Sequence record: NC_135731.1
Reading direction: 5' to 3' (one strand)
Length of the DNA stretch: 64,000 nucleotides
Origin: a phage
Shown here: piece after piece, positions 4,810-64,000 of the stretch
Position numbering within the stretch: position 1 is the stretch's first letter
How the letters are laid out: the number at the start of each line of letters is the position of its first letter
Translations under genes and position numbers: made by a program
Notes under the pieces: generated by a model
Told to the model about the DNA's origin: nothing
Database searches by the model: none
Seen by the model: the letters and a program-made list of their open reading frames with translations, nothing else

Positions 4810-5205
4810 TTATTCCTGAAAAGCAACGATATCATATGAACTTGCAGACGATCCTAGTGAAGAATGACTCCAATCTAGGTTATCAGAGTAGTCAGCGTAC
4901 TGTGCACCACTACGTAGTTTATATTTTACCCACTTACCTGGTGCAGGGTTTTCACCACCTTCCCATACTACCCAGTCTTCTGGCAGGCCGTCCTGAGGGT
5001 AGTCATCCACCTCACTAATAATCTTAGGGTTTGGCACCAAGAACCATGCAGGCTCTTCCTTCCGGGTAAGTGTCCACACAGCGTAGGTATCTGAGCAGGC
5101 GCATGATAGCAAAGTATATCCACTATTCAGAACTTTTGCAAGCTCTTTTTCAGCATCTCCTAATTTGGTTAAGTGGTATTGGATAATCTTCACACCTGTA
5201 ATCAT
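4810..5205 (-). CDS. hypothetical protein (131 aa)
   Basis: Co-directional ORF, stop adjacent to next start; no recognisable motif. Confidence 0.6.
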   Translation of the reverse strand: MITGVKIIQYHLTKLGDAEKELAKVLNSGYTLLSCACSDTYAVWTLTRKEEPAWFLVPNPKIISEVDDYPQDGLPEDWVVWEGGENPAPGKWVKYKLRSGAQYADYSDNLDWSHSSLGSSASSYDIVAFQE

Positions 5206-49807: not shown

Positions 49808-50524
49808 TTAGTTAACATCAATAGCACGACCAGACTGGTTGGCAATAGCCTCATCATTGGAGGTAGCAATAACACCAGAGTATTCGCGCTCATCTGGAGC
49901 AAGCGTCCAGGTATTGCGGTTAATGGTTTGTTCTGCCTCAGTCATCAGCAGATCTTTATCCTGAGTCAACAGAGAGCCTACAGGGATCGGGTTTTCCATC
50001 TCAGGACCAGCATACTGGTTCCACCATGTGGCATCTCCGGTTCTAGGCAATCTGAAGTTGATCAGGTAGTACAGTTTATTAGCCCACTTAATCCAACCCT
50101 CATCATCACAGAGAGAGGTTGTCCCAGAATCAGGTTGTGGGTAGGTAAACTGATCAAGACCTACGAAAGCCAGCCTTACAATCTCGTTCTCTTTGGTAAC
50201 AACCTCAAAGAACGCTTGGTATGTTCTCGATCTTCGATCCATGGTAGACTGGAAGTTTACGATGTTTAGCACATCCGGCTCTTGTCTTGCCACTTCCATA
50301 ATCTTGTTATCAAGAACAGTCTTCATGACCTTCTTACTGAGAAAGTCCATATAAGGGAAGCCAAACAACTCGTCAAAGTACCAGCTCCCCTTCCACGTAT
50401 TAAACCTCATCCACAAGCGCTGGCGCAGACTTACCTGGTTTGAATCTATCAACTCAAGACCTTTGTCTATCGCCAAATCACCTGTCTGTGGGTCCATCAA
50501 TATATCACTATAAAGCGTAGCCAT
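49808..50524 (-). CDS. putative baseplate protein (238 aa)
   Basis: Immediately downstream of the spike-like gene, where baseplate wedge genes sit in P2/Mu-type tails; positional call only. Confidence 0.35.
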   Translation of the reverse strand: MATLYSDILMDPQTGDLAIDKGLELIDSNQVSLRQRLWMRFNTWKGSWYFDELFGFPYMDFLSKKVMKTVLDNKIMEVARQEPDVLNIVNFQSTMDRRSRTYQAFFEVVTKENEIVRLAFVGLDQFTYPQPDSGTTSLCDDEGWIKWANKLYYLINFRLPRTGDATWWNQYAGPEMENPIPVGSLLTQDKDLLMTEAEQTINRNTWTLAPDEREYSGVIATSNDEAIANQSGRAIDVN

Positions 50525-50536
50525 GAAAGCCCTCTA

Positions 50537-51214
50537 TTAGTGCGGTCCACTTGTCTCGCCATCAGGGCAAGAGTGGGTATGACCTTTATATTCTGCATAG
50601 AATGAATCCAAATCCACACCAGCAGCAGTTATAATTCTACCAGATGGGTCTATTGTGGCACCATTCATTCTGATATTTCCATCCACAGCAGCTCGCAAAT
50701 TGGCAGCACCGTTAGTGAAAGAAAACTCCCCGCTGCTGTCGCACCGTAATGTCCCACCCGGTGTTTGAAGCTCAAAATCTCCAGAAGGTGTCAGTTTAAA
50801 ATAGACCTTATCATTCCATAACTCTACGTTATCAGGATCGATCTGTAAAGCGTTTGAGTCTGAATGAACAGAGGTTATTGCCCACCCAGGAAACAGGCCG
50901 TGAGTTTGTTGATCGTCGTTATTGTTTTCATTTCTCTCTGAAAACTGCAATCCTACAACATCACCAGCTTTAATAGGAAGTGTTAACCTTGCCTTTCCAC
51001 TGTTTGCAGACATCACCTGAATTGGAACGTCATAGATAAGAGGGTATCTCTCCACATCTCCATCATCAAACGTGGTTTCAGCTATTGGCTGCACGGCTGC
51101 AGAAGGGATACTGTAGTCTACACTGACAACTCTGGCCCTGATACTGGTGTGGTAGTCCCTCATTATTTTTTCTATAAAGGATCTTACAGCAGCATCTTTC
51201 CTATTTATTGCCAT
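50537..51214 (-). CDS. baseplate central spike protein (P2 gpV / Mu gp45-like)
   Basis: C-terminus KGHTHSCPDGETSGPH resembles the recalled P2 gpV terminus (HTHKHPGDSGGTTGSPL) with its His-x-His apex motif; N-terminal LPIKAGDVVGLQFSERN fits the OB-fold part of such spikes. Confidence 0.55.
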   Translation of the reverse strand: MAINRKDAAVRSFIEKIMRDYHTSIRARVVSVDYSIPSAAVQPIAETTFDDGDVERYPLIYDVPIQVMSANSGKARLTLPIKAGDVVGLQFSERNENNNDDQQTHGLFPGWAITSVHSDSNALQIDPDNVELWNDKVYFKLTPSGDFELQTPGGTLRCDSSGEFSFTNGAANLRAAVDGNIRMNGATIDPSGRIITAAGVDLDSFYAEYKGHTHSCPDGETSGPH

Positions 51215-52218
51215 TATACCTCCTCAGTTTTGTCAACAACTCCACCCACTGTTTCCCCAAGGCCAAGCTCTGTAGTGTAATCACCTCCTTCTATGGTGCC
51301 CTTATGATGCACCGTGATCACCTTATAGAATCCTGTATATTGCTTGCTTTTAAGATAAATAGTGGACTCTGGGAGGATAGCTCCGTTAAGGCATGTGGTT
51401 ACAGTAAGGCCAACATCCTCTCTCGGGTTTTTCTTTTTCTTTTTAGATGTCGAACCACCTTTGGCAGCAGCTTTAGCTTTTCGTTTTTTAGCAGGTTCTG
51501 GATTTTTAGGGGTAGGAGATCCATGCATCCCAGACTCTGCACTTATTTCAAACACAGAGTCTTTGAACCTTTTTCCAACCTTGGTCCAATACAAAGCCCC
51601 ATCCTGAACGCTAAATGTGGAGTTGGTCAGCCTTGCAAACCTGCGGAGGTTCTCTGCAGTGTTTCCAGAGAAAGCCATAGAGTATTGTAAAGTCTGGTTT
51701 CCAAAACCCACAACCCTACCTTTTGGCAAGTTCATATCCTTCAGTAGGTCATTAAGCACAGAGTTCAGAGGTGTGCCTTTCTGATAAGATCTTGTGCTTT
51801 GGCACTTAATGATGTTCTCAGTGCCATCCCCAAAGATGAACTTAGTTTTTCTGGTCGGACCTTCCCATCTGTCTTCAACAAACTCCACAGTTCCGGAGAA
51901 TATCAACTGGTTCTCATTATCATAGCCAGCTTCAAACATAACTGCAAGGGCATCGGCCTGATGCATATCCAAATAGTTAACTGTATCGTCAGACAGGTTG
52001 TAAACTGTCACATAACCTTTGTTTGGCTCTTTGGTATTGTCCTTTTGTATGTCAAACTCTATATTGGCAGCACCAGTGTCCGAGCTAACTTCATAGACTC
52101 CGGAATCACTCTCCCCTTTCTTTTCAACAGATTTTGGGATATTGGTTTTTGATTTACCACCATGTTCTACAGGACGACCAAACAATAATCGCCATGTTCT
52201 ACGTCTGTACTCTGCCAT
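51214..52218 (-). CDS. putative baseplate or tail structural protein (334 aa) with lysine-rich segment
   Basis: Position between the tape measure and spike genes; internal basic stretch KKRKAKAAAKGGSTSKKKKKNPRE; no motif match. Confidence 0.35.
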   Translation of the reverse strand: MAEYRRRTWRLLFGRPVEHGGKSKTNIPKSVEKKGESDSGVYEVSSDTGAANIEFDIQKDNTKEPNKGYVTVYNLSDDTVNYLDMHQADALAVMFEAGYDNENQLIFSGTVEFVEDRWEGPTRKTKFIFGDGTENIIKCQSTRSYQKGTPLNSVLNDLLKDMNLPKGRVVGFGNQTLQYSMAFSGNTAENLRRFARLTNSTFSVQDGALYWTKVGKRFKDSVFEISAESGMHGSPTPKNPEPAKKRKAKAAAKGGSTSKKKKKNPREDVGLTVTTCLNGAILPESTIYLKSKQYTGFYKVITVHHKGTIEGGDYTTELGLGETVGGVVDKTEEV

Positions 52219-52598
52219 TATTCTAACCCTTGCTGTTCCTTGTAAAGATCAACCGGGGTGCCGTATACAAGTTGTAGCTCAGATCTCGCCCCAAGGTTAT
52301 ATCTTCCAACCCTGCCCCAATATTGATCGTCTTTAAACGACAGCGCCATCAGTCTACCTTTCGGTAAATCATCTCTGTAATGCAGTCCGTCTAAAATATC
52401 TTGACAAGCTGTTACTTTTCTGGTTACTAAAGGACTGTCACCTACTGGACCAAGAGATAACCACCAGGACTCATCCCTCTCATTCCATTGCATACGCATT
52501 TCATACGTTTCATTGTCTAAAACAACACGCATGGTTTGATCAGGAAAGCCGTCAATGTCCCACACAAAGGTGATTATGCACCAATCTTTAAGCTCCAT
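52218..52598 (-). CDS. putative tail structural protein (126 aa)
   Basis: Co-directional with stop/start overlap in the tail module. Confidence 0.35.
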   Translation of the reverse strand: MELKDWCIITFVWDIDGFPDQTMRVVLDNETYEMRMQWNERDESWWLSLGPVGDSPLVTRKVTACQDILDGLHYRDDLPKGRLMALSFKDDQYWGRVGRYNLGARSELQLVYGTPVDLYKEQQGLE

Positions 52599-52610
52599 TA
52601 TACGCTCCCC

Positions 52611-53495
52611 TTATTTCCCGTTAACTTTGTTGTAGTTTCCCTGCTCAGATGGGACTATGGTAGAAGGTCTTCCATATTCCTGATAATACCAATCCGCAGC
52701 CGATTGGGTAACACCGTTTTCATCTGTCCACATCATAGATTTGTATGGCTGCCACTCCTCTGCAGCGTTTGTGGATGCAGTGTCTGCGAATGCTCCTGTG
52801 TCCCTCTTGTTACCTACGTTACTACCATTCTTACAGTCGTTGACAGCGCCTTTTTGTTGGGTCTTGCCTACTTTCTTAGGATTGCTGTATACAGTTGCAT
52901 TAACAACCTTATTCAAGTAGAATGTGCGGAACTCTGTAAGTTCTACATCAAACACCATTGCAGCGCCTTCACCAACAGACTTGTTGGCAGAAAGACTGGT
53001 TATGATGTAGTTCTCAAGAAGTCTCTCCTCGGTAACCAAAGAAACCAACTGGCGCTTATTAATGATCTCAGTCAAAGCCTCCAGTGCAGCGCCCGGTCGC
53101 ATAGATGCTGCAGGGTTTTTAGAGTCAGTATTCCTGTCAATGTAGTTTTGCTCATAGATTATATGTGGAGATGTATTTACCCTGCCAGTAAAAGAAAATA
53201 CACCATCTTTAATTACAGCGTGGTCTGACAGGGTAGATTTATCTTCCACCGCAAACCCAGTCTTATCAACAGAATGTTTGAAAGAGTAATTCTCAACCTG
53301 ATCGAAGATAATGGCAAGATCGTTAGTAAAGTTTTTACCCTTCATCTCCGTATTGCGACCACCATAGTTAAGACCGCTGACAAACATAGTATACTTTACA
53401 TCGCTTTCAGTTTGCTGCTCTGCCTTTTCAGCCTTTGGAGATTTAACCTCTTGAGGCTTGTACAGGTCTTTTTCATCAACTATATTGCTTGGCAT
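52611..53495 (-). CDS. putative tail structural protein (294 aa), first gene after the tape measure gene
   Basis: GGAGAGG RBS; preceded by its own promoter-like element and the tape measure terminator. Confidence 0.4.
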   Translation of the reverse strand: MPSNIVDEKDLYKPQEVKSPKAEKAEQQTESDVKYTMFVSGLNYGGRNTEMKGKNFTNDLAIIFDQVENYSFKHSVDKTGFAVEDKSTLSDHAVIKDGVFSFTGRVNTSPHIIYEQNYIDRNTDSKNPAASMRPGAALEALTEIINKRQLVSLVTEERLLENYIITSLSANKSVGEGAAMVFDVELTEFRTFYLNKVVNATVYSNPKKVGKTQQKGAVNDCKNGSNVGNKRDTGAFADTASTNAAEEWQPYKSMMWTDENGVTQSAADWYYQEYGRPSTIVPSEQGNYNKVNGK

Positions 53496-53528
53496 AACCT
53501 CTCCAGGACACTCCTATACCATCTAGAT

Positions 53529-53557
53529 ATTGTATCATAAAATAGCCGTTTTTACAA
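53529..53557 (-). promoter_or_regulatory. putative promoter with extended -10 (TTGTAA-17 nt-TGA-TACAAT)
   Basis: Minus-sense elements about 33 nt upstream of the ATG at 53495, immediately after the tape measure terminator. Confidence 0.4.
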
Positions 53558-53561
53558 CACC

Positions 53562-53588
53562 GATAAAATAAAGGGGGCCGGAGCCCCC
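53562..53588 (-). terminator. rho-independent terminator after the tape measure gene
   Basis: GGGGGC-CGGA-GCCCCC hairpin followed on the minus strand by TTTATTTTATC, 12 nt after the stop at 53600. Confidence 0.65.
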
Positions 53589-53599
53589 TGCACAGTTTA

Positions 53600-55936
53600 T
53601 TACCAAAGGTCGGTAGACATGAAGTTGATATCTTTATTGTTCTCCCACTCAAGTTTTGCATCAAATATTTTGTTAAACTCACCCTCATCTATTGAAATCG
53701 TGATTTTCCCATCACTGATCTCTAAAGGTAGCATTTCCATAGTTCTTAATTGAGAAGCAAAACCAGGGCCACCCGGCAACGGAAGAGTCCCGCCCGGTAA
53801 GGTGTCCAAAGGATTAACAAACCCGTTACCTCCCGATATGATATCTTTGCGAATCATATCGCTGATAGTATCCAGCTGCTGATTTCTTTCACTTAGTGGG
53901 TTGTAACGGTCATTAAATAATTCCCCGGCGCTTAGTATTGTACCGATAATGCCCAGCTTACCGAGCAGACCAACTTTGCCACCAGGTGTCTTGAGGCCAC
54001 CCCCACCTTTTCCTGCCGGAGCTCCACCACCAGATCCTTCTGTAGTAGCGGCACCCGCTGCTCCAGCTGCACCCCTTAGAGAGTTAAGGAATTTAAAGGT
54101 TTTTACAAGCATGGATGCCATGACAAAACCTTTTGTTAGGGCATTGACTACCAGCATGATGGCAGCAGCAAACCCTGCCCATTTAGCATAGCTAAAGGTG
54201 TCATGAAGCTCTTCAGAATATTCCTTCGTCTTAGCTGTTATGAATCCCCATTTAATCCCCCATTCAAGGAAAAACATGCGGATCTTGACTATGGTGTTGT
54301 TTAGTTCACCAACTACCCAGTTAAGGCCTCTCACAAACCCGCTAACAAAATCACCAGAGGCATCCCACACAAATTGCAGAGTCTCACCAGTGCGGATCAG
54401 TGTATAATAGAACTCTGTCAGTTCGTCAGACCAACGGGTGAACAGTTTCTGACGAGTCAGTTCGATGAAGGTTTTCAGTCTGTTTTCTGCCAGCACGTTA
54501 GACTTCTGCATTCTTTCATAACCAGCTGCAGATGCCTCGTTCATGTACTTAGCCACATACTTCATGATCTTGGCTGTTTTAACCTCACCTTTCTTCATCA
54601 TGTCCATGAACTGATCCATGGAGAGTTCAGAAAGACCAAAAGCCTCTTTGGTGGCCTTGATAAAAGGTTCGTATGCACCGGGCAATGCTTCAGCAAGTTG
54701 TTGCTTCAGTTCTTCGGACATTACTTGTCCCTTGCCTAGCATCTGTTGGATAGCCATAATACCACGCTGGTATTTTACCTCATCGGCACCATAAGCAGCA
54801 GCATACTGGGAGTATGCAGAGAACAGCTCATGAACCTCCTGATTTGTCATCTGGTTTTTGGCGTTTACCGACATCTGGGCGTAACCTTGAAGACCAGATT
54901 TGAGATCAAAACCAAGACGCATAGCCTCTTGCTGGACAAACGCAACCTCACTGTTGGCTTTGTTTGGATCTCCAGTAACAGCAGTAAGAGCAGCACTTGC
55001 ACCCTCCATCATGTGACCGGATCTGTTAACAGCAGTAAATCCAGAAAAAGCCGTATACGCAGCTGTTGCATTAATAACAGATCTACGTAAGTCTCTCATG
55101 GCATCGCCTAGTGTAAGCGTTTGGCTGGTGGCGCTTTTAAACCCAGACTGCAGCGCTGACAGGTGGGCGTTAAAGGTTGACTTCTTCATCTCCCCGCGAG
55201 CAAACCTGGACTCTAACTCTGAGTATCCTGGCAAGCTTCCACGGAATCCGGCCCCATACTTGGCAGAAAGTCTTATCGCGGAGTTGTAGAGGTGGGTTCT
55301 CCTTGCCTCACGATCCGACATAAGCTTATTATCCATACCAGCTTTACTGTCTCTTCTTAGCTGTCTATGATAACGATTCATAGCGGCTGTCTGAGCTTTC
55401 ACAAGGTTAGGGTCGGAAGCCACACCACCCATATTAGGGTTACCGGGGATATATTTGAAAGATTTGGCATTAGCCAAAACTCTTGCCTTAGGTGCCTTAT
55501 AACCACCGTAAGACACTGGTGCAGATTTGGCAGCCTTTTTGGCCTCTTTAGCTTGCTGCTGGTAGAACTTACGCATCCTAGCCATTTCTGGATTTTTAGC
55601 GGTAAGATTACCTACAGCTTGTTTACGTCTCGCATTCTCCCTACGTTCTATTGCAGCCCTTACTGCAGCCTCTTTCTTGGCCTGTGCTACGCTCTCTCTG
55701 TGCAGCTTAGCATTTGCCTGAGATTGCTGTCTGGCAACCCGCTGCATTGTCTGCTGGGTTTTAACAGCTACCGCCTGCCATCTACTCATGGGGTTGGCTG
55801 AGTTAAAATCTTCGCCCAGTTTCCTGAACTCCCTCCCAATACTGCGAATTTTCTCTACAGCTTTTTTGTAGGAGGAGTTCTCTATCTCAAAGCCAATCTT
55901 GTTGACTGTTGTGGCAACTATTTTGTTTGTAGCCAT
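53600..55936 (-). CDS. tail tape measure protein (778 aa)
   Basis: Long, low-complexity helical protein with Ala/Gln/Lys-rich segments, a hydrophobic segment (WAGFAAAIMLVVNALTKGFVMASMLV) and a Gly-rich tract; lies directly downstream of the frameshifting chaperone pair, the canonical tape measure position. Confidence 0.7.
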   Translation of the reverse strand: MATNKIVATTVNKIGFEIENSSYKKAVEKIRSIGREFRKLGEDFNSANPMSRWQAVAVKTQQTMQRVARQQSQANAKLHRESVAQAKKEAAVRAAIERRENARRKQAVGNLTAKNPEMARMRKFYQQQAKEAKKAAKSAPVSYGGYKAPKARVLANAKSFKYIPGNPNMGGVASDPNLVKAQTAAMNRYHRQLRRDSKAGMDNKLMSDREARRTHLYNSAIRLSAKYGAGFRGSLPGYSELESRFARGEMKKSTFNAHLSALQSGFKSATSQTLTLGDAMRDLRRSVINATAAYTAFSGFTAVNRSGHMMEGASAALTAVTGDPNKANSEVAFVQQEAMRLGFDLKSGLQGYAQMSVNAKNQMTNQEVHELFSAYSQYAAAYGADEVKYQRGIMAIQQMLGKGQVMSEELKQQLAEALPGAYEPFIKATKEAFGLSELSMDQFMDMMKKGEVKTAKIMKYVAKYMNEASAAGYERMQKSNVLAENRLKTFIELTRQKLFTRWSDELTEFYYTLIRTGETLQFVWDASGDFVSGFVRGLNWVVGELNNTIVKIRMFFLEWGIKWGFITAKTKEYSEELHDTFSYAKWAGFAAAIMLVVNALTKGFVMASMLVKTFKFLNSLRGAAGAAGAATTEGSGGGAPAGKGGGGLKTPGGKVGLLGKLGIIGTILSAGELFNDRYNPLSERNQQLDTISDMIRKDIISGGNGFVNPLDTLPGGTLPLPGGPGFASQLRTMEMLPLEISDGKITISIDEGEFNKIFDAKLEWENNKDINFMSTDLW

Positions 55937-55990
55937 GGTTTCCTCATAATAAAAAGGGCCAGATCCCAGAAAAGGAATCCGGCCCTTAGA

Positions 55991-56356
55991 TTATCCTCTC
56001 CTGCGCTTAGCTTTCGCAGCAGCTGCGGCAGCCTTCTGCTCCCGCTCCATTTCCCTGTTTTGGACGGTATCTAGGAATTCTTCGATATCAAGATACTCAC
56101 AGAGCTTCAGGAAATACGCCATATCTGCAAGATTTAGCGATTCAAAATTTTCCCCTTTGAAATTCTTGAGCACCCTGCACCAAAGAAAGTCGAACCAGTT
56201 GAGTGAACTGTTCTTAGCTGCCCACTCGCTGGCCCTCACAACAACCTTGCTTATTCCTGCTCTTCCGGAGTCTGATCCAGGTTGTTCACCTGCTGAATCA
56301 TACCCATCTGCTGTAACATCTCCAGAAGGCTTCCTAAACCGTCTTGTGTGAAAAAA
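55991..56356 (-). CDS. tail assembly chaperone, -1 frameshift extension frame (T-like part of a G/GT-type pair)
   Basis: The frame of the 82-aa ORF (GTG at 56239) is open upstream to a stop at 56366-56368 and overlaps the 3' part of the upstream chaperone ORF in the -1 frame; a slippery heptamer lies at 56350-56356. Confidence 0.5.
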   Translation of the reverse strand, partial: FFHTRRFRKPSGDVTADGYDSAGEQPGSDSGRAGISKVVVRASEWAAKNSSLNWFDFLWCRVLKNFKGENFESLNLADMAYFLKLCEYLDIEEFLDTVQNREMEREQKAAAAAAKAKRRRG

Positions 56357-56724
56357 CAGCCGTAGTTAACCTCCAGAACCTTACCTGCCAGCTTAATCAT
56401 CTCCAGCAGATGCCCTGCAAACACAACATCTGGGTTAAGCTTATCCACACCATCCACAGTAATATCTTCGAACAAGATTTTAAATAACTCTTCAATGGAG
56501 TTATCATCAAGTTCTTGGAACAGGTAAGCCAGGGCTGTAGGAAGGACCTCTGCCATATTCTGACCACCTGAGAGAATAGATCCACCGATAGCACCTAGCG
56601 GGACAGCCACAATCTTACCGATTTTAGGCATGTTTTTCATTGCTTTCATCGGTCCCCAGTGGGTGATCACAAAGTTGTGCCCTGCTAAATCAATCTCTGT
56701 TGTAGGTCTAAAGTTTATAGCCAT
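56251..56724 (-). CDS. tail assembly chaperone (G-like, 157 aa)
   Basis: Small acidic protein immediately upstream of the tape measure gene, with a downstream overlapping -1 frame; RBS AAGGATG; driven by the promoter at 56768-56796. Confidence 0.6.
   Translation of the reverse strand: MAINFRPTTEIDLAGHNFVITHWGPMKAMKNMPKIGKIVAVPLGAIGGSILSGGQNMAEVLPTALAYLFQELDDNSIEELFKILFEDITVDGVDKLNPDVVFAGHLLEMIKLAGKVLEVNYGCFFTQDGLGSLLEMLQQMGMIQQVNNLDQTPEEQE
56350..56356 (-). other. candidate -1 programmed ribosomal frameshift site (T TTT TTC)
   Basis: X XXY YYZ heptamer in the zero frame of the chaperone ORF (codons TGT TTT TTC, residues CFF) inside the region where the -1 frame is open. Confidence 0.45.
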
Positions 56725-56751
56725 TTTATAGCATCCTTATTAGTCATGTTG

Positions 56752-56789
56752 TGCACCATATTTGTGTATTTTACCATGATTATGGTGCA
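56752..56789 (-). promoter_or_regulatory. inverted repeat (TGCACCATA ... TATGGTGCA) overlapping the chaperone/tape measure promoter; candidate operator
   Basis: Perfect 9-bp arms at 56752-56760 and 56781-56789 separated by 20 bp; one arm lies in the promoter spacer, the other just downstream of the -10. Confidence 0.4.
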
Positions 56790-56796
56790 TTGTCAA
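56768..56796 (-). promoter_or_regulatory. strong sigma70-type promoter (TTGACA-17 nt-TAAAAT with TGG extended -10)
   Basis: Minus-sense perfect -35 TTGACA (plus 56791-56796), 17-nt spacer, TGG then TAAAAT (plus 56768-56773); about 45 nt upstream of the chaperone ATG at 56724. Confidence 0.6.
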
Positions 56797-56837
56797 TTTA
56801 ACCTTTCAAGCAATTCAAGAACGTGTGTCAAAACCAT

Positions 56838-56868
56838 AAAAGCAAAAAGCCCCACCCGAAGGTGAGGC
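56838..56868 (-). terminator. rho-independent terminator after the tube-like gene
   Basis: Hairpin GCCTCACC-TTCG-GGTGGGGC followed on the minus strand by TTTTTGCTTTT, 19 nt after the stop at 56887. Confidence 0.65.
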
Positions 56869-56886
56869 TTATGCTAAAGTGTGCCC

Positions 56887-57360
56887 TTAGATAATACCTG
56901 CAAGACCTGCGAGGCCAGTAAGAGCACCAGTGATGTTATCACGGTTGAGCCATGCATCCAGAATACCGATATCCCAGTCAAGTTGGCCCACTTCTGTTCC
57001 GTAAGTCAGGTCAGGCTGTTTCTGGATCCAACCGATTGTGGAAATACCAGGACCCTGGCTACCTTCCAGCAGAACCGGGAAGAATACCAGGCCAGTAATC
57101 GATGCCTGTTTCTGCCAGTCAGAAAGGTAAGCGTTCCATACAGAAGTGTTCTGCAAAGACACAGTCATAACACCGGATTGGTTACGGGACAGAGCCGCAG
57201 ACATTTCACCATCCACACCGACGTGAGGATAAATGTTGTCCTCGTTTCTTGAAACAACAATCTTAGTGTCAGCAGCGAAGCCAGTGACACGCTGCTGCAT
57301 CAGATACAGTTTGACCTTTTTAGGGTCATACGCATAAGGAGTTAAAATTTGAGTTTCCAT
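56887..57360 (-). CDS. putative tail tube protein (157 aa)
   Basis: Small protein directly after the sheath-like gene and before the chaperones, the tube position in P2/Mu-type contractile tails; followed by a strong terminator. Confidence 0.45.
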   Translation of the reverse strand: METQILTPYAYDPKKVKLYLMQQRVTGFAADTKIVVSRNEDNIYPHVGVDGEMSAALSRNQSGVMTVSLQNTSVWNAYLSDWQKQASITGLVFFPVLLEGSQGPGISTIGWIQKQPDLTYGTEVGQLDWDIGILDAWLNRDNITGALTGLAGLAGII

Positions 57361-57370
57361 CTAGGCTTCC

Positions 57371-58747
57371 TTATTCAGTCATTGCAACAGCACTGGTGGA
57401 TTTAGAACCAACTTTGTCCAGAAGGACGTTGATCCGGATACGAACGAAGTGCAGGGCGTTATTATACACCAGTTCTACTTTCACACCTTCCAGAACACGA
57501 GCAGCCAACTGATTGGTTGGGATTTCTGCACGTTTAGGAACTGTGATGATCGGGTCGTAGAATACATTATTGTCTTCGTCGAAACCTGTCAGGATCGCAC
57601 CATTCTTAATGCCAGTGTTGATTGGGTTGTTCATCAGGACAGACTTGATAACCGGAAGATCATCATCAGACATCTTCATGCTTAAACCCATATTGGAGCG
57701 ACGATGCATGTACCCAAACATGGATTCTTCAGATCTGAACTTGATCCAGTGTGCAAAACGAATAGCGTCTGCATACTGACCTGAAGCACACTTGCCTTCC
57801 CAGAAAGCACCAACACCGTTAATCATTCTGTAGAAGTTAACGTGGTTTTCCCAAATCGCCATACGCTGAGTTAAAGTCAGAGATGGTGCAATCACACCCG
57901 GCATCTGTTTTAAGTGCAAGCTGTCACCGTAAGACGGATCGTTGGATGCCATAGCGCCTACGATACCACCCTCTGGAAAATCTTTATCAGCACGAGGATC
58001 GTACATGCCAACACTGTCATACTGTGCAGCCATCAGTTTGGTGGCGATGTTATTATCTTTACCAGTCACATCTTCTGCAGTAGAGTAGACATGCAGCTTG
58101 TAGTTAGCCTGAGCCCACTTAGCACATGCTTCAATGTCGGTGTGGTCTTCATGGCACAGGAAGTACCAATTGTCACGCTCAGCATTGATCTTATCAACTA
58201 CTGTAGAAGGTTTTTCAGCATTGGCGATATTTTTGATTGTATAGTTACCAGTATGGTAACCAACAGTGCAGTCACCAGTGATGGTGAGAACACCTTCAGC
58301 AGCCTCTACAGTGATATCGTTCAAGCTATCATCTGCTTCAATTTTAGTCTTCATTGACTCTGCAATCTGAGTTGCACCTGTTCCACCAGAGATAGGCACT
58401 ATCAAAGAAGTATTGTAGCTACCTTTTGCAATAGTCATTACGACATCGGTATCAGCTGCGGCAGCAATACCTTTAAAATCTACAGTGGTCTTTTCTTTGG
58501 CCTGTCTGCCGATCATAACGTATTGTGGAGGGAATACACCACCAAAAGCTTTTGCTGCAAACTCATACGCTGCAGAGCCTTGTGCGAAACCATCTTCCAC
58601 CATCTGATCCAGCTCAGCATACACGCGAGCTCGCTCAGTAAAGTTGTTGTGGATAGCGATGAACAGCGGAGTTTCGAAACCTACAGTGTCAATAGGCTGG
58701 GTTCCGAGGTTAACTGTAACATCTACCACTTTATCTAAATATGGCAT
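57371..58747 (-). CDS. putative tail sheath protein (458 aa); alternative is a large siphovirus-type tail tube protein
   Basis: Size and position; C-terminal region HVNFYRMINGVGAFWEGKCASG resembles the conserved sheath motif recalled from P2 FI (LIRRDGFRFWGNRT) and T4 gp18 (VIRTFPGRGVVVWGARTL). Confidence 0.5.
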   Translation of the reverse strand: MPYLDKVVDVTVNLGTQPIDTVGFETPLFIAIHNNFTERARVYAELDQMVEDGFAQGSAAYEFAAKAFGGVFPPQYVMIGRQAKEKTTVDFKGIAAAADTDVVMTIAKGSYNTSLIVPISGGTGATQIAESMKTKIEADDSLNDITVEAAEGVLTITGDCTVGYHTGNYTIKNIANAEKPSTVVDKINAERDNWYFLCHEDHTDIEACAKWAQANYKLHVYSTAEDVTGKDNNIATKLMAAQYDSVGMYDPRADKDFPEGGIVGAMASNDPSYGDSLHLKQMPGVIAPSLTLTQRMAIWENHVNFYRMINGVGAFWEGKCASGQYADAIRFAHWIKFRSEESMFGYMHRRSNMGLSMKMSDDDLPVIKSVLMNNPINTGIKNGAILTGFDEDNNVFYDPIITVPKRAEIPTNQLAARVLEGVKVELVYNNALHFVRIRINVLLDKVGSKSTSAVAMTE

Positions 58748-58809
58748 TTGTTTCCTCTTAATATCTGTGCACGGATATCAAACACGCAGTGTAATCATTA
58801 CACTACACA

Positions 58810-58840
58810 ATTATAACGATTACTGACCACTGTCTGTAAC
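58810..58840 (-). promoter_or_regulatory. putative promoter (-10 TATAAT) upstream of the sheath gene
   Basis: Minus-sense perfect TATAAT (plus 58810-58815) about 60 nt upstream of the ATG at 58747; -35 is poor (TACAGA). Confidence 0.3.
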
Positions 58841-59371
58841 CGCTTTACCAGAATTGGGTGAAGGGAAGTGTGTGGTTATTTCAGCCTTAATTCCCTGAAG
58901 ATCCTCAAAAGCCCCAATGTCTGTTTCAACAAACCTTACGTTAAATGTCAGCATCACAGTGGCTCTATTTTCATACGTCTGCTTATTCAACGGCACCCTT
59001 TGAGGTGAGATTGTTGAATTGTTAGAGTAGGCAAAGCACGATCCCAGGGGGAAATACTTGTCATAAAACATTGGAAGATTTATTGCTTGCAATACTCTGC
59101 TAAGTGCAGCATGTGCCCTGCCACGATAAGCTGTTAACAGATAGGTAACAGTGTAACTGTGTGTTACGTAAGCATTACCCTCCGCATCTTGAAACTCATT
59201 ATCTTCCCAAGTGGTGGGATTGATCGCCAAGGTTTGTAAAAGTACAAACTCACCTTCCGGCTTTGGTATGGTAGAGCTTTCTGCCAGAACTACAGTTCTT
59301 CCTGTGGCAACCTTGACAAGCTTAGCAATGGTTGTTTCAAGATCAGAAAAAACTTTTTCGAAAGCTTCCAT
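58820..59371 (-). CDS. putative neck or tail completion protein (183 aa)
   Basis: Position between the head genes and the sheath gene; no motif match. Confidence 0.35.
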   Translation of the reverse strand: MEAFEKVFSDLETTIAKLVKVATGRTVVLAESSTIPKPEGEFVLLQTLAINPTTWEDNEFQDAEGNAYVTHSYTVTYLLTAYRGRAHAALSRVLQAINLPMFYDKYFPLGSCFAYSNNSTISPQRVPLNKQTYENRATVMLTFNVRFVETDIGAFEDLQGIKAEITTHFPSPNSGKAVTDSGQ

Positions 59372-59796
59372 TAGTTTTCTCCTTCAGGCTCTTCTACCAC
59401 AAAAAATCTATATCTTCCACCACCAGATGTGACATATGCATCGCATTTTAAAACGGTAAACCATTTCAAGTCACCACGGATGTCAGGCAGCTGAATTTGA
59501 TCAGCCATTGCATATGTTCCTTCATCTGGACTATACAACTTGGTCGAGGAGTAAACTGTAAAAGCCTCGTACTGTCTGTCACCTTCGGGATTTATTTGAG
59601 AGGAGTAATCTTTAGCTGCCCTTCCTGTCAACGGCTGCACAACACACTCTAAGACATCAAACTCTTCATACTCAAGTTCTAACCCCTCGTTAGCAAAAGG
59701 ACCACCAACTGTTTTGTTATACACTCTGTGGCGACCTTTGAATGTTTTACGAGGTATTAGTCTGTTCTTTCCTATCAGCTTATAACCTGCTGCCAC
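59371..59796 (-). CDS. putative head-tail joining protein (141 aa)
   Basis: Positional call; stop/start overlap with the downstream gene. Confidence 0.35.
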   Translation of the reverse strand: MAAGYKLIGKNRLIPRKTFKGRHRVYNKTVGGPFANEGLELEYEEFDVLECVVQPLTGRAAKDYSSQINPEGDRQYEAFTVYSSTKLYSPDEGTYAMADQIQLPDIRGDLKWFTVLKCDAYVTSGGGRYRFFVVEEPEGEN

Positions 59797-59811
59797 TCAA
59801 CCCCCCTTATT

Positions 59812-60270
59812 TTACTGTCCGATTTTAAAGGTTGCAGATTCCAGCAGCACATCGTAATGCCGCATAGCCTCGTTGAAGCCCTTCTCTTGTGCCCACTGCT
59901 CGCTAACAGTAGGGTTACTAAACTGACCAGCCTCAATAACAAACTGGATAGCTTTGGCCCCTGTGTCCCCCATCTGCCTAAGAACAGCCTCTGCACTTGA
60001 TCCTCTAGCCATAGCTCTCAACAATTTTTCTGTCAAGGTCTGCAGTTGCGTGCTGTGAAATGCAAAGGCCGTCTCCATGAAATTGCGAACAGGCAGCCCG
60101 TTCCAACCGAAGTTGTGAATAGCTGCCAATGTTGCCATATTTAAGCCTGACGGGTGAGGTTCGTCATAAAAGCCGTAGGTTATTGTTTTACTTTCAAGTC
60201 TCACAAGTTCTTTGTAGAAGCGATCTAAACGCTTTAGGTTGAACCTTGTTTGACATTTAACCTTTAGCAT
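59812..60270 (-). CDS. putative head completion or neck protein (152 aa; track start 60282 is a GTG alternative)
   Basis: ATG at 60268-60270 preceded by GAGGGA; the promoter -10 ends only a few nt upstream of the GTG at 60282, so the ATG is preferred. Confidence 0.4.
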   Translation of the reverse strand: MLKVKCQTRFNLKRLDRFYKELVRLESKTITYGFYDEPHPSGLNMATLAAIHNFGWNGLPVRNFMETAFAFHSTQLQTLTEKLLRAMARGSSAEAVLRQMGDTGAKAIQFVIEAGQFSNPTVSEQWAQEKGFNEAMRHYDVLLESATFKIGQ

Positions 60271-60288
60271 TATATCCCTCACTAATGT

Positions 60289-60317
60289 ATTTTACCACAA
60301 AGATACATCAAAAGCAA
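60289..60317 (-). promoter_or_regulatory. putative promoter with extended -10 (TTGCTT-17 nt-TGG-TAAAAT)
   Basis: Minus-sense TGG then TAAAAT (plus 60289-60294) with a weak -35; same extended -10 as at 37349, 42621 and 56768. Confidence 0.45.
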
Positions 60318-60323
60318 CAATTT

Positions 60324-60944
60324 TTAAAAACTGCGTTTGCGTCTTGGGTGGCGAGGAGGTTGGTTATTTAGACCACTGATAGGTGTAATCCCCTGGACAT
60401 CGAACGGTCCGTTGCTGTTTTCATTAAATTTAACCCGAATTCCTTCGTCTACACGAACACCACCAATGATAATCATTCTGCTGTAAGCATCTAGCTCAGA
60501 ATCTACATAGTCTGGGTGTGCCAGCAGCCAATCAAGGAAATCTTTCCATTGGGCGTAGGAAGATCCACCACGAATCTCTATGGTCTCATCACCTATTTTT
60601 TCCAGACGGGAAGTTATACTTGCATTACCGCTGGACACTTCCTGCATCATCAGCCACCGCACAAGCTGCACAAGCACATTGTACTTAAGTAGGGGCAGCT
60701 TATCAGGATCTGCCGGATAATTTAGTTTCAACTTCTCCATGTCAAGGAATGTTTTAATTACCCCGTCAGGGAGTGTTTCCTCATCAACATTGCCAAGCAA
60801 TAACCTCATAATATCAATAAGAGGTTGGTCCGGATCAGGTTCCGGAGGTACAGGATCTTCTTTTGGTGGTTCTTCTGGGGTATCAACTACACCATCATGG
60901 TTAGGCGGGGACGGGATAATCTCTTCATCTTCATACCATGCCAT
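60324..60944 (-). CDS. putative head-associated protein (206 aa) with Pro/Glu-rich N-terminal linker
   Basis: Track start 61001 lies inside the terminator hairpin; ATG at 60942-60944 (MAWYEDEE...) has GAGG 9 nt upstream. Confidence 0.4.
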   Translation of the reverse strand: MAWYEDEEIIPSPPNHDGVVDTPEEPPKEDPVPPEPDPDQPLIDIMRLLLGNVDEETLPDGVIKTFLDMEKLKLNYPADPDKLPLLKYNVLVQLVRWLMMQEVSSGNASITSRLEKIGDETIEIRGGSSYAQWKDFLDWLLAHPDYVDSELDAYSRMIIIGGVRVDEGIRVKFNENSNGPFDVQGITPISGLNNQPPRHPRRKRSF

Positions 60945-60959
60945 TTGAAAATACCTCGT

Positions 60960-60993
60960 AAAAATAAAGCCCCATTCCTGATTTGGAAGGGGC
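60960..60993 (-). terminator. rho-independent terminator after the 61004-61831 gene
   Basis: Hairpin GGCCCCTTCC-AAATCA-GGAATGGGGC followed on the minus strand by TTTATTTTT. Confidence 0.55.
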
Positions 60994-61003
60994 CTTAACA
61001 AAA

Positions 61004-61831
61004 TTATGCCAGTGCAGCCTCAAAATCTTTCATCATATTTTGGAAAGTTTTTGCCTTACTTAAGGTAACACCGTACTCTTTAGCGAAGGTTTGGAGTGCA
61101 TCTTTTGAACCACTTTTGTCATCTTCGTTGTTAAGAGCTGCGGCCTGTTTAAGGATTTCATCCTTATTCTCAACAGCTGCAGATGCGAAAGAGGCTACAG
61201 CCACATCTTGTGGATCTGCTACAGGACCTTCACCGTCACCACCAGGTTCAGTAGGACCTACAGGCGGCTCCGGCTCTGGTTCAGGCGGTGGAGCTATCGT
61301 AGAGACCAGCCCAAGATTTACAACCTGAGAACGTTTCTTAGGCCACTCAATGGTGAAAGTTTGGGTATCTTCTTCATAAACAATGTTGCATTGCTCATCG
61401 TTTATGGTCACTTTTTTAGGCATCCCTACAGGGTCCCACAGATGTCCCTCTGCCACGGAAACTTTGAAAGCAGCATCTACCTCTTTAAACACTGACGGAG
61501 TGAGTGTGATATTGACATCCCCGCTTTGCAGTGTTAAAGTGCTTTCATCAAGGTTCTCTGTGAAGAACAGAAGAATAACACCCATACGGATGGTTGAAAT
61601 ACCAGTATCAATTGGCAGGCCTGTGTGTTTTGCAATCTTCTGGAAGAAGTCTACAATCGTTCTACATGGATAGTGAACACTGCCAATAACGAATTCTGTT
61701 GGTGGCAGCAGAGCTGATAAACCAACATTGATTTCTGGATTGTATTGTGCTAAAAATTGATAAAAACTTAATTGATTGTTGAAAACTCTTAATAGAGGAT
61801 CATACTCAACTGGATATACGGCTCTCTTCAC
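61004..61831 (-). CDS. virion structural protein (275 aa) with Pro/Glu-rich linker
   Basis: First gene after the major capsid terminator; internal linker PPPEPEPEPPVGPTEPGGDGEGP between two folded-looking halves. Confidence 0.4.
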   Translation of the reverse strand: MKRAVYPVEYDPLLRVFNNQLSFYQFLAQYNPEINVGLSALLPPTEFVIGSVHYPCRTIVDFFQKIAKHTGLPIDTGISTIRMGVILLFFTENLDESTLTLQSGDVNITLTPSVFKEVDAAFKVSVAEGHLWDPVGMPKKVTINDEQCNIVYEEDTQTFTIEWPKKRSQVVNLGLVSTIAPPPEPEPEPPVGPTEPGGDGEGPVADPQDVAVASFASAAVENKDEILKQAAALNNEDDKSGSKDALQTFAKEYGVTLSKAKTFQNMMKDFEAALA

Positions 61832-61850
61832 GGGACACTCCTGTTAAACC

Positions 61851-61887
61851 CTAATAAATAAAAAGGGGAGGGGAGAACCCCCTCCCC
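61851..61887 (-). terminator. strong rho-independent terminator after the major capsid gene
   Basis: Hairpin GGGGAGGGGG-TTCT-CCCCTCCCC followed on the minus strand by TTTTTATTTATT, 25 nt after the stop at 61912. Confidence 0.7.
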
Positions 61888-61911
61888 ATATGGGATGAAT
61901 CACCTTAGTGA

Positions 61912-62922
61912 TTAGCCACCGTTTTTCAGAGTTACTTTAACAACCAGCTCTGGACGGGTGTTAACTGCCAGCATAGAAGTTTCAGATTCAATCTTCTCTT
62001 CACGCAGGTATGCAGAATGTTTATACCACATATACAGTTCCTGTGCTGGGGTATTTGCTTCGTTAACATCGTCTGCCGGAGCAAAGTGCAGCTGGAACAT
62101 CTGATCAATACCCATCGGCAGAATGCGAGCTTCTTTCTTAGGAATATTGCCAGAGATATCTTCGATAAAGGTGATACCTTTATGCTCAAACACACGGTAT
62201 ACGCTGTCTTGACCGCCAGCACCCAGACGGCGACGCAGAGGTTCCTGAGCAGAGCCGTAATAGGTGTATGCCAGTTCTACCAGCGGGTGATGGGTAATAG
62301 CACTGAAGAACTCTGGTGAGCACAGGGCTACGATGCGATAGCCAGCTGCGTTATCGCCAGCTTGCAGCGCGATGTGCAGACGAGCTTCTTCCAGAACCTC
62401 CATAGGATCCTGATCTGCTTTTGCAGGGTCAATTTCAACAGATTTCTGAGACACACCCCACAGAGTGTAGTAATCATACTGGCAGGTGGTGTCACCAGGT
62501 GCATAGGATTTACCTAGAATAGCCTGGAACAGCGCTTTCTCACGCAGTGCTTCATGAGAAACACGGATACGGCGAACAACGCGGGTTACTACGTCCTGAA
62601 CAGTTTTCGGAGCATCAGGGGTGAAGTAACGACGGAAGTTCTGAACATCTGCTGCGGTAATGCCTTTGTCCAGAGGGAAGAACGGGATGTTCAGGTTTTT
62701 AACCTGAGCACGTTCACTACCAACGTAGTTACGCTCACCACCACGACGGCGTGCCGGAATGTCGGTTACAACTTCATCAACACGTTCGATCTGAGCAATT
62801 GTTGAGGTGCCAAGGCGAGTTTCGAACAGATCCATACCGGTAATCAGGCGAAATTGACGCGGAACAAGGTCCAGAGTAGCACCTAAATCAACAATGCCAA
62901 ATTCATCTTTACGAGTAATCAT
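61912..62922 (-). CDS. major capsid protein (lambda gpE-like family)
   Basis: 336 aa, preceded by scaffold-like and decoration-like genes and followed by a strong terminator, the lambda-type head order; weak sequence resemblance to gpE, so family assignment is partly positional. Confidence 0.65.
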   Translation of the reverse strand: MITRKDEFGIVDLGATLDLVPRQFRLITGMDLFETRLGTSTIAQIERVDEVVTDIPARRRGGERNYVGSERAQVKNLNIPFFPLDKGITAADVQNFRRYFTPDAPKTVQDVVTRVVRRIRVSHEALREKALFQAILGKSYAPGDTTCQYDYYTLWGVSQKSVEIDPAKADQDPMEVLEEARLHIALQAGDNAAGYRIVALCSPEFFSAITHHPLVELAYTYYGSAQEPLRRRLGAGGQDSVYRVFEHKGITFIEDISGNIPKKEARILPMGIDQMFQLHFAPADDVNEANTPAQELYMWYKHSAYLREEKIESETSMLAVNTRPELVVKVTLKNGG

Positions 62923-62970
62923 TTATTTCTCCAAAGTAAAACTTAAATATTTTCCCGAACAATTTAGGGC

Positions 62971-63360
62971 TTACTCTTCACCAAGAGTCTGGACGTGAAC
63001 TTTGTTACCCAGAGCTTCCAGCTTTTCAAGAACAGCCTGCTTAGCTGCTTCACCGTTAGACCCTAGCAGTTTATCTTTTGCAAAGGTAACACCGTGAACT
63101 GCAACAACCAGTTTATATTTCTGACCTGTTTGCAGAGGCTCAGCGAGATGAACTTTTCCTGCATCTTTTACCAGAGCTCGGTCTACAAGAACACCATAAA
63201 CGTCTGAGCCATCATCGTTAGCGATAGTGCCAGTTTTTGTTACAACAGTACCAGCATGATGGTGCTCTGTCAGTGTAATTTCCATCTCTTTAAAATTGTA
63301 GCCAGCATCGCTAGAATCAACTTTGCCGAGCACGATATCAGAATATTGAGCGGTAATCAT
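62971..63360 (-). CDS. head decoration protein (lambda gpD-like position), 129 aa
   Basis: Small protein between the scaffold-like and major capsid genes; Gly/Val-rich beta-type composition. Confidence 0.55.
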   Translation of the reverse strand: MITAQYSDIVLGKVDSSDAGYNFKEMEITLTEHHHAGTVVTKTGTIANDDGSDVYGVLVDRALVKDAGKVHLAEPLQTGQKYKLVVAVHGVTFAKDKLLGSNGEAAKQAVLEKLEALGNKVHVQTLGEE

Positions 63361-63380
63361 TTATTTCCCCCGTTAATGTC

Positions 63381-64000
63381 TTATTTGTTAGATTCTGCAC
63401 GTGCACGAGCAAGTGCTTTTGCAACGTTTTCAGCAAGAATTTCTTCTGCGGATTTTGCAATATCATCCACAACAGGTTCGCCATCATTACCATGTTCAGT
63501 GGTGGCAAACTCTTCTTTAGTTTTATGCACCTCTGCTTCCAGCTCTTCAATTTTTGCTTGAGCTTTCTCCAGCATAGCTACGATAGGTTCGTTAGCTTTT
63601 TCCAGCATGAAGTCAACCAGGGTTGCGTGATCTTCTTCACCAACAAAGCTTAAAGCTTGAGCCTTAGTCAGCATTTTAGCTTTTTCAACTTCAACCTGGG
63701 CCTTGATGATTTCTTCAGCTTTACTCTGGGTTGCTTTCAGCTCTTCTACTTGCTTCAGCAGATCCAGATACTCTTTAGTTTTGGTTACGTCCACCGGATT
63801 CTCCTCGGTATTTGCGGATTTTGCAACATCATCCACCTCGGTAGTTTTATCCACCTCAGCAGGTTCCTGTACCGCCTTGATCAGGTTCCCTTCTTTATCG
63901 AAGAGATCAGCGGTTACTTGTTCAAAAATCTGTTGTGTTTTTAACAGGCTGTACTGATCTACCACACTAAGCTGCTTGCCTTCTTTTGCAGCCTTATGAA
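63381..64000 (-). CDS. head scaffolding protein, C-terminal part (possibly the end of a protease-scaffold fusion); 5' end beyond the window
   Basis: Highly charged Ala/Glu/Lys-rich coiled-coil sequence (KAQVEVEKAKM ... KIEELEAEVHKTKEE); the frame stays open upstream of the track start at 63965 to the window end, and the GTG at 63965 has no well-placed RBS. Confidence 0.55.
   Translation of the reverse strand, partial: HKAAKEGKQLSVVDQYSLLKTQQIFEQVTADLFDKEGNLIKAVQEPAEVDKTTEVDDVAKSANTEENPVDVTKTKEYLDLLKQVEELKATQSKAEEIIKAQVEVEKAKMLTKAQALSFVGEEDHATLVDFMLEKANEPIVAMLEKAQAKIEELEAEVHKTKEEFATTEHGNDGEPVVDDIAKSAEEILAENVAKALARARAESNK

Follow-up and report, generated by a model that had tools for sequence, protein, structure and literature searches.

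Organization of the tail gene junction

The locus lies at the junction between the tail tube and tail assembly chaperone genes of an rV5-like phage. On the minus strand it carries, in the order of transcription, the tail tube gene, the intrinsic terminator t052, the promoter P51 with an overlapping inverted repeat, the chaperone gene, the terminator-like hairpin t050 and the tape measure protein gene (Table 1). The window, i.e. the whole 64,000-nt stretch of DNA that was analysed, is the reverse complement of positions 39301-103300 of LC739542.1, the record of phiWec196 (Vequintavirus, rV5-like), and the full phiWec196 genome (138,673 bp) was rebuilt from the window and two further pieces. The 2-kb stretch around P51 is 100% identical in phiWec196 and 98% identical in rV5, and almost all of 122 matching records of rV5-like Vequintavirus phages are at least 95% identical to the same stretch. 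The sequence is also 97-99% identical to that in 18 GenBank records of the MG0656xx series (query, window 56000-58000), which are named "Campylobacter phage" and give C. jejuni as the host, pointing to wrongly assigned hosts or to contamination among those records.

Table 1. Features of the tube, chaperone and tape measure junction, in the order of transcription (window coordinates)
Feature	Coordinates	Strand	Basis
Tail tube / virion structural protein gene (rV5 gp52 homologue)	56887..57360	-	Pfam PF11681, E = 7e-9; relatives' annotation
Intrinsic terminator t052, after tube gene	56847..56870	-	AAGCCTCACC-TTCG-GGTGGGGCTT then TTTGCTTTTA
-35 hexamer TTGACA of P51	56791..56796	-	Unvarying in all relatives inspected
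Left arm of repeat, TGCACCATA, inside P51 spacer, about -28 to -20	56781..56789	-	Repeat search
Extended -10 of P51, TGGTAAAATA (TG 56776-56775, TAAAAT 56773-56768)	56767..56776	-	Read from sequence
Putative transcription start, A 6-7 nt past -10 hexamer	56761..56762	-	Inferred from standard sigma-70 geometry
Right arm of repeat, TATGGTGCA, about +2 to +10 if start near 56761	56752..56760	-	Repeat search
Shine-Dalgarno-like AAGGA, 9 nt ahead of chaperone ATG	56734..56738	-	Sequence; ribosome binding site annotated in Murica
Tail assembly chaperone gene (rV5 gp51 homologue, 157 aa)	56251..56724	-	Pfam PF21822 Phage_TAC_15, E = 1.1e-23; rV5 annotation
Slippery heptamer T TTT TTC, in chaperone frame	56350..56356	-	Sequence and frame reading
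Terminator-like hairpin t050, between chaperone ORFs and tape measure	55954..55987	-	14 pairs, 8 G-C
Tape measure protein gene (778 aa)	53600..55936	-	ORF list; annotated in rV5 and Murica
Exact copies of TGGTAAAATA	37348, 42620, 56767, 60288	all -	Exact match to late motif TggTAaAAtA

The terminator t052 consists of 10 pairs (6 G-C) with a 4-nt loop and is followed by a T-tract, as in Rho-independent terminators. It is listed at -18.3 kcal/mol in Table S4 of the rV5 study (Kropinski 2013, PMC3606486), is also annotated in Murica, and is followed by P51 about 50 nt downstream. After the slippery heptamer in the chaperone gene, the -1 frame is open for about 120 codons up to a stop at 55993-55991. 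This second frame is annotated as a separate overlapping ORF, gp050, in rV5 and as a short independent ORF in Murica and phiWec196. Judging from the heptamer and the open frame, the -1 frameshift product of the chaperone gene (rV5 'gp50') is likely to be programmed, as is classic for tail assembly chaperones.

The hairpin t050 is listed at -24.2 kcal/mol in the same Table S4 for rV5 (Kropinski 2013, PMC3606486). The ribosome binding site of the tape measure gene and then its ATG follow immediately after the T-tract of t050, and since there is no room for a promoter after this tract, the tape measure gene would depend on read-through of t050. The chaperone ORFs and P51 are thus bracketed by terminators, and the description of the downstream genes as a 'chaperone and tape measure operon' needs qualifying: P51 does lie ahead of the chaperone genes, as the initial annotation had it, but t050 separates the tape measure gene from them.

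Promoter P51 and its motif family

The core of P51 on the minus strand comprises the -35 hexamer, a 17-nt spacer and TGGTAAAAT, with TGG at 56776-56774; the arrangement that had been proposed from the sequence, TTGACA / 17-nt spacer / TGG-TAAAAT, proved accurate in every coordinate and letter. The spacing falls within the 16-18 nt of sigma-70 promoters, and the TG motif is located at -15/-14, as in sigma-70 promoters with an extended -10. Matching the sigma-70 consensus at 11/12 positions in addition to the TG extension, P51 is the top promoter-like site in the interval 50000-64000. It lies after an intrinsic terminator, and its -10 hexamer is 43 nt upstream of the ATG (56724) of a Pfam-confirmed chaperone gene. 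Together, these features support the proposed reading of 56752-56796 as a promoter. A literature search for published Vequintavirus transcriptome or start-site data returned nothing usable, and the promoter activity of P51 is predicted here from sequence.

The promoter at this position is already known, its prediction and annotation dating back to the rV5 genome paper: the rV5 record carries a "Sigma70-type promoter; P51" at the homologous position (NC_011041 48291-48319). Kropinski et al. 2013 (Virol J 10:76; PMC3606486) described 33 sigma-70-like promoters and 20 terminators in rV5, together with eight copies of the MEME motif TggTAaAAtA upstream of late genes, and P051 appears both in the sigma-70 list and in the late-motif list (Table S4C) of their Table S4. 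The published P051 37-mer, TGCACCATAATCATGGTAAAATACACAAATATGGTGC, covers both arms of the repeat minus the final base of the right arm. The terms 'inverted repeat' and 'operator' are absent from the text of that paper, and the 9-bp palindrome at P51 has no earlier description.

The sequence TGGTAAAATA is present in 4 exact copies in the window, compared with 0.16 expected, and 0 of 100 shuffles reached 4; this excess places the P51 promoter beyond chance. Each of the four lies upstream of a late gene, on the late-gene strand, with 20-45 nt to the start codon. The copy at P51 matches the late motif exactly over 10 nt and is intergenic, on the same strand as the late gene that it closely precedes.

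The inverted repeat and the search for further copies

A perfect 9-bp inverted repeat with 20-bp spacing is present at 56752-56796 exactly as it had been described. Its two 9-nt arms, TGCACCATA and TATGGTGCA, are 100% complementary and separated by a 20-nt gap, and the centre of the dyad coincides with the middle of the -10 hexamer. As in operators, dyad half-sites therefore overlap core promoter elements. The window contains about 12 distinct perfect inverted repeats of at least 9 bp with gaps of 3-40 nt (17 k-mer hits), and Markov simulation gave 12 ± 4 k-mer hits for perfect repeats of at least 9 bp. Such a repeat is found in 0.5% of random 60-bp windows of the genome (nominal probability 0.005), and the chance of finding one over the roughly 40 predicted promoters of the genome is roughly 0.1-0.2. 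By itself, the P51 repeat is not convincing as a signal beyond chance.

The rebuilt 138,673-bp genome contains six exact copies of the half-site 9-mers versus about one expected. Two of these belong to P51; the other four are single sites, none of which forms part of an operator-like pair, and two of them lie outside the window within annotated genes. A genome-wide scan for inverted pairs with up to two mismatches per arm yielded none beyond chance in the 138,673 bp, and inspection of the other three exact TGGTAAAATA promoters revealed no comparable repeat. The search for half-site copies, which the initial annotation had put forward as a check, thus returned no second operator-like site in the full genome, and the repeat neither recurs at other promoters nor forms a set of multiple operators. 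The 7-mer TGCACCA/TGGTGCA is 2.8-fold over-represented genome-wide (39 copies versus 14 expected from base composition), an excess that may come from codon usage.

One look-alike, TGCACCA-N10-TAAAATA-N12-TGGTGCA, was found at window positions 4945-4897, with 29 nt between the 7-mers versus 24 at P51. It lies within a 131-aa ORF, and the joint chance of its occurrence was put at about 1e-3 as a rough estimate. This site was rejected as a second operator and attributed to coincidence, as it is not conserved in rV5 (TGGCGCA), Murica (CGGTGCA), SYGMH1 (TGGTACA) or FV3 (TGCGCCA). The changes are single, uncompensated and mostly at third codon positions. In the same part of the window (4910-4960, minus strand, in ORF 4810..5205), a stretch of about 45 nt, TGGGAAGGTGGTGAAAACCCTGCACCAGGTAAGTGGGTAAAATA, is nearly invariant across six genomes, synonymous sites included, and its flanks diverge by 5-15% across the same six genomes. 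At the end of the stretch is GGGTAAAATA, which resembles the late motif and lies 125 nt ahead of the next gene; the stretch may represent an internal promoter or some other element acting at the nucleotide level.

Two further kinds of promoter repeat were encountered outside the window. The P224-like promoter at LC739542.1 105814 (L023 ~2514; equivalent to P224 of rV5) reads TTGACAcTGCACC..., and has TGCACC at spacer position 2, like P51; a 6-bp repeat of its own, ACTGCA-N18-TGCAGT, surrounds the -10. The sharing of TTGACAnTGCACC by the two promoters was rejected as a common element, because the GGTGCA partner is absent and the dyad centre is displaced by 6 nt; the likeness is probably coincidental. 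Three early-region promoters (LC739542.1 115761, 116383 and 120089; L023 ~12461, 13083 and 16789) contain GATGGCC-TTGACTCCAG-GGCCATC, a 7-bp inverted repeat that brackets the -35 and is part of 45-nt promoter copies that are nearly identical. Its recurrence makes this repeat a better operator candidate than that at P51.

Conservation and natural variants

Of 117 phage records, 106 have an identical copy of the 61-mer that contains the P51 promoter and the repeat. The next 61-mer downstream, comprising the leader and the first codons, is likewise identical in 106 of 117, and the upstream 61-mer in 80 of 117. Given the equal figure for the downstream 61-mer, the repeat is no better conserved than its surroundings.

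Variants were drawn from GenBank (six records), IMG/VR (three contigs) and a metagenome (one contig), and six variant left arms were identified (TGCATCATA, TGCACTATA, TGCATTATA, TGCACAATA, TGCACCGTA and TGCACCACA). One of these (L036) was added by a scan of metagenome contigs for the sequence upstream of P51; the other metagenome matches, from outside the phage group, were discarded, as only a 19-mer pattern is in common and the flanks are unrelated. Throughout the block from about -50 to the ATG, only left-arm positions 5-8 vary (C5T, C6T, C6A, A7G and T8C). The right arm and the 5' leader around it are unchanged in all relatives inspected, with no compensatory change (0 cases), and the outer TGCA of both arms is unvarying. 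The half-sites are thus neither both conserved nor co-varying among the relatives. Spacer positions with no known role in promoters are also invariant in the relatives inspected, and the block from about -50 to the ATG may conceivably be under some constraint beyond that of a plain promoter.

Chaperone homologues are found either at 95% identity or more (117 records) or at less than 60%, with nothing between. Owing to this lack of intermediate relatives and to the low diversity of the genus, the comparative test of the repeat has limited power. In sister genera of Vequintavirinae (loci L006-L015), the junction between tube and chaperone genes is short, and neither a sigma-70 promoter nor the P51 repeat was found in it. 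At ~1420-1500 of these loci, the sequence GCCAC-N6-GTGGC makes up a conserved hairpin that also has an outer stem and shows a few compensatory changes. A separate small hairpin exposes an AGGAG ribosome binding site in its loop and displays A-U to G-C covariation.

HMD-6 (PQ505080.1; L024 1152-2777) carries a 541-aa ORF between t052 and P51 that ends about 5 nt before the -35, and P51 is intact in spite of this insertion. The ORF product gave a weak, sub-threshold Pfam match to a treble-clef zinc finger domain (DUF4379), and the ORF may be a mobile or homing-type gene. A similar break in the match was noted in 'Campylobacter phage A147'.

Interpretation of the repeat

The initial annotation had regarded the repeat as an operator for a dimeric regulator that blocks the promoter. 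On this reading, the arms would be half-sites for a phage or host protein that occludes the spacer, the -10 and the start and thereby delays or limits chaperone expression. A perfect dyad centred on the -10 of P51 has operator-like geometry, its nominal chance per 60 bp is low, the outer TGCA does not vary in either arm, and a full-consensus sigma-70 promoter in a late block would presumably otherwise fire upon DNA entry. However, the genome contains no other copy in operator geometry, the look-alike at 4897-4945 being differently spaced and not conserved, and the other TGGTAAAATA promoters have no comparable repeat. Natural variants affect four positions of one half-site only and are uncompensated, which argues against an operator because binding by a symmetric protein dimer would be expected to put equal constraint on the two halves. 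Promoter and repeat are both absent from sister genera, and the annotation tables of rV5 contain no repressor, regulator or DNA-binding entry. The half-site centres of helix-turn-helix dimers are usually 10-11 bp apart; those at P51 are 29 bp apart, which is much wider. A repressor-bound operator at P51 is therefore not sustained by these data, and we consider regulation of this kind unlikely. A more specific version, in which a phage protein silences P51 until late in infection through a genus-specific operator with half-sites 29 bp apart, appears improbable; if it were true, the outer TGCA would represent the critical contacts, which would explain the drift at inner left-arm positions only.

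Alternatively, where transcription continues through t052, the repeat could function at the RNA level by folding into a hairpin (9-bp stem, 20-nt loop) that might direct processing of the transcript or stabilise it upstream of the chaperone leader. This hairpin is predicted as both the minimum-energy and the centroid structure of the read-through RNA (-17.2 kcal/mol for the 101-nt stretch around it, z = -2.4, a value equalled by 1 of 200 shuffles), and in the sister genera a different, covarying hairpin occupies the same gene junction. Moreover, three of the five substitution types (C5U, C6U and A7G) retain pairing as G-U, which could explain why only the 5' arm varies. This last point was rejected as support for an RNA stem: six of the nine left-arm positions tolerate a transition, as counted from the sequence, so that G-U compatibility at three of the four variable sites is at chance level, and the other two types, C6A (L036) and U8C (L003/L025), break the pair. 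Among relatives there is no compensatory double change, a 20-nt loop makes for a weak hairpin, and transcripts started at P51 would hold only the 3' arm, in a leader without significant structure (z = +0.8). A search of 55800-57400 against Rfam gave only sub-threshold noise. Taken together, these points leave the hairpin with a small probability. It is also conceivable that the arms are half-sites for host NtrC, in which case P51 would be linked to host nitrogen status. Where NtrC overlaps a sigma-70 promoter, as at glnAp1 and glnLp, it acts as a repressor. The 7-mers TGCACCA and TGGTGCA both equal the halves of the NtrC consensus, TGCACCA-N3-TGGTGCA (TGCACCAnnnTGGTGCA; PMC8743547; PMC4987338). 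At P51, however, a gap of 24 nt rather than 3 separates them, and although the half-sites are present, the defining 17-bp dyad is absent; natural variants alter the core CCA of the left half-site, and TGCACCA is over-represented throughout the genome, as described above. Control by NtrC is thus highly improbable.

The reading that we consider probable is that the locus contains the known predicted promoter P51, which would restart transcription after t052 for the chaperone genes, and that the repeat is incidental. In this model, t052 would end the sheath/tube transcript, and P51, as a near-consensus sigma-70 promoter with an extended -10 belonging to the TGGTAAAATA family upstream of late structural genes, would start a new transcript, with some 37 nt of leader, that covers the chaperone gene and its -1 frameshift extension. 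Only read-through of t050 would extend transcription into the tape measure gene, and such a layout may allow chaperone and tape measure levels to differ from those of sheath and tube. The left arm would correspond to the one unconstrained part of the promoter spacer, and the right arm would be conserved as part of the invariant initial transcribed region and leader. We infer that the repeat is most likely incidental rather than a selected operator or RNA structure; some doubt remains, since such a repeat is nominally improbable, its dyad is centred exactly on the -10 and the genus shows little diversity.

The analysis provides a map of the junction, consisting of t052, P51, the chaperone gene with its -1 frameshift, t050 and the tape measure gene, and suggests that tail-gene expression levels are set by termination and re-initiation in this group, members of which (rV5-like phages) are in use for biocontrol and therapy. 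Its significance is small, as the promoter has already been published and the repeat gives no sign of a regulatory role.

Comparison with known systems

The P51 repeat resembles the lambda OR/OL and lac O1 operators in its dyad symmetry overlapping core promoter elements, but differs from them in being a single site with centres 29 bp apart, asymmetric evolution and no known cognate regulator. Compared with NtrC (GlnG) sites, the 7-mers are identical, whereas the spacing at P51 is 24 nt and the site lies on a sigma-70 phage promoter. The TAAAATA core of P51 resembles the consensus of the T4 late promoter, TATAAATA, as noted by Kropinski et al. (PMC3606486). A point of difference is that the -35 hexamer of P51 is perfect and lies at 17 nt, which on paper removes the need for a late-specific factor; rV5 lacks homologues of T4 gp33, gp45 and gp55 (Kropinski 2013, PMC3606486). 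P51 is similar to the extended -10 promoters of E. coli (TGnTATAAT), with TG two bases upstream of a TAnAAT hexamer. Its closest counterpart is P51/P051 of rV5, which is the same element: the two align without a difference from about -50 to the ATG, and both have t052 upstream and the chaperone gene downstream.
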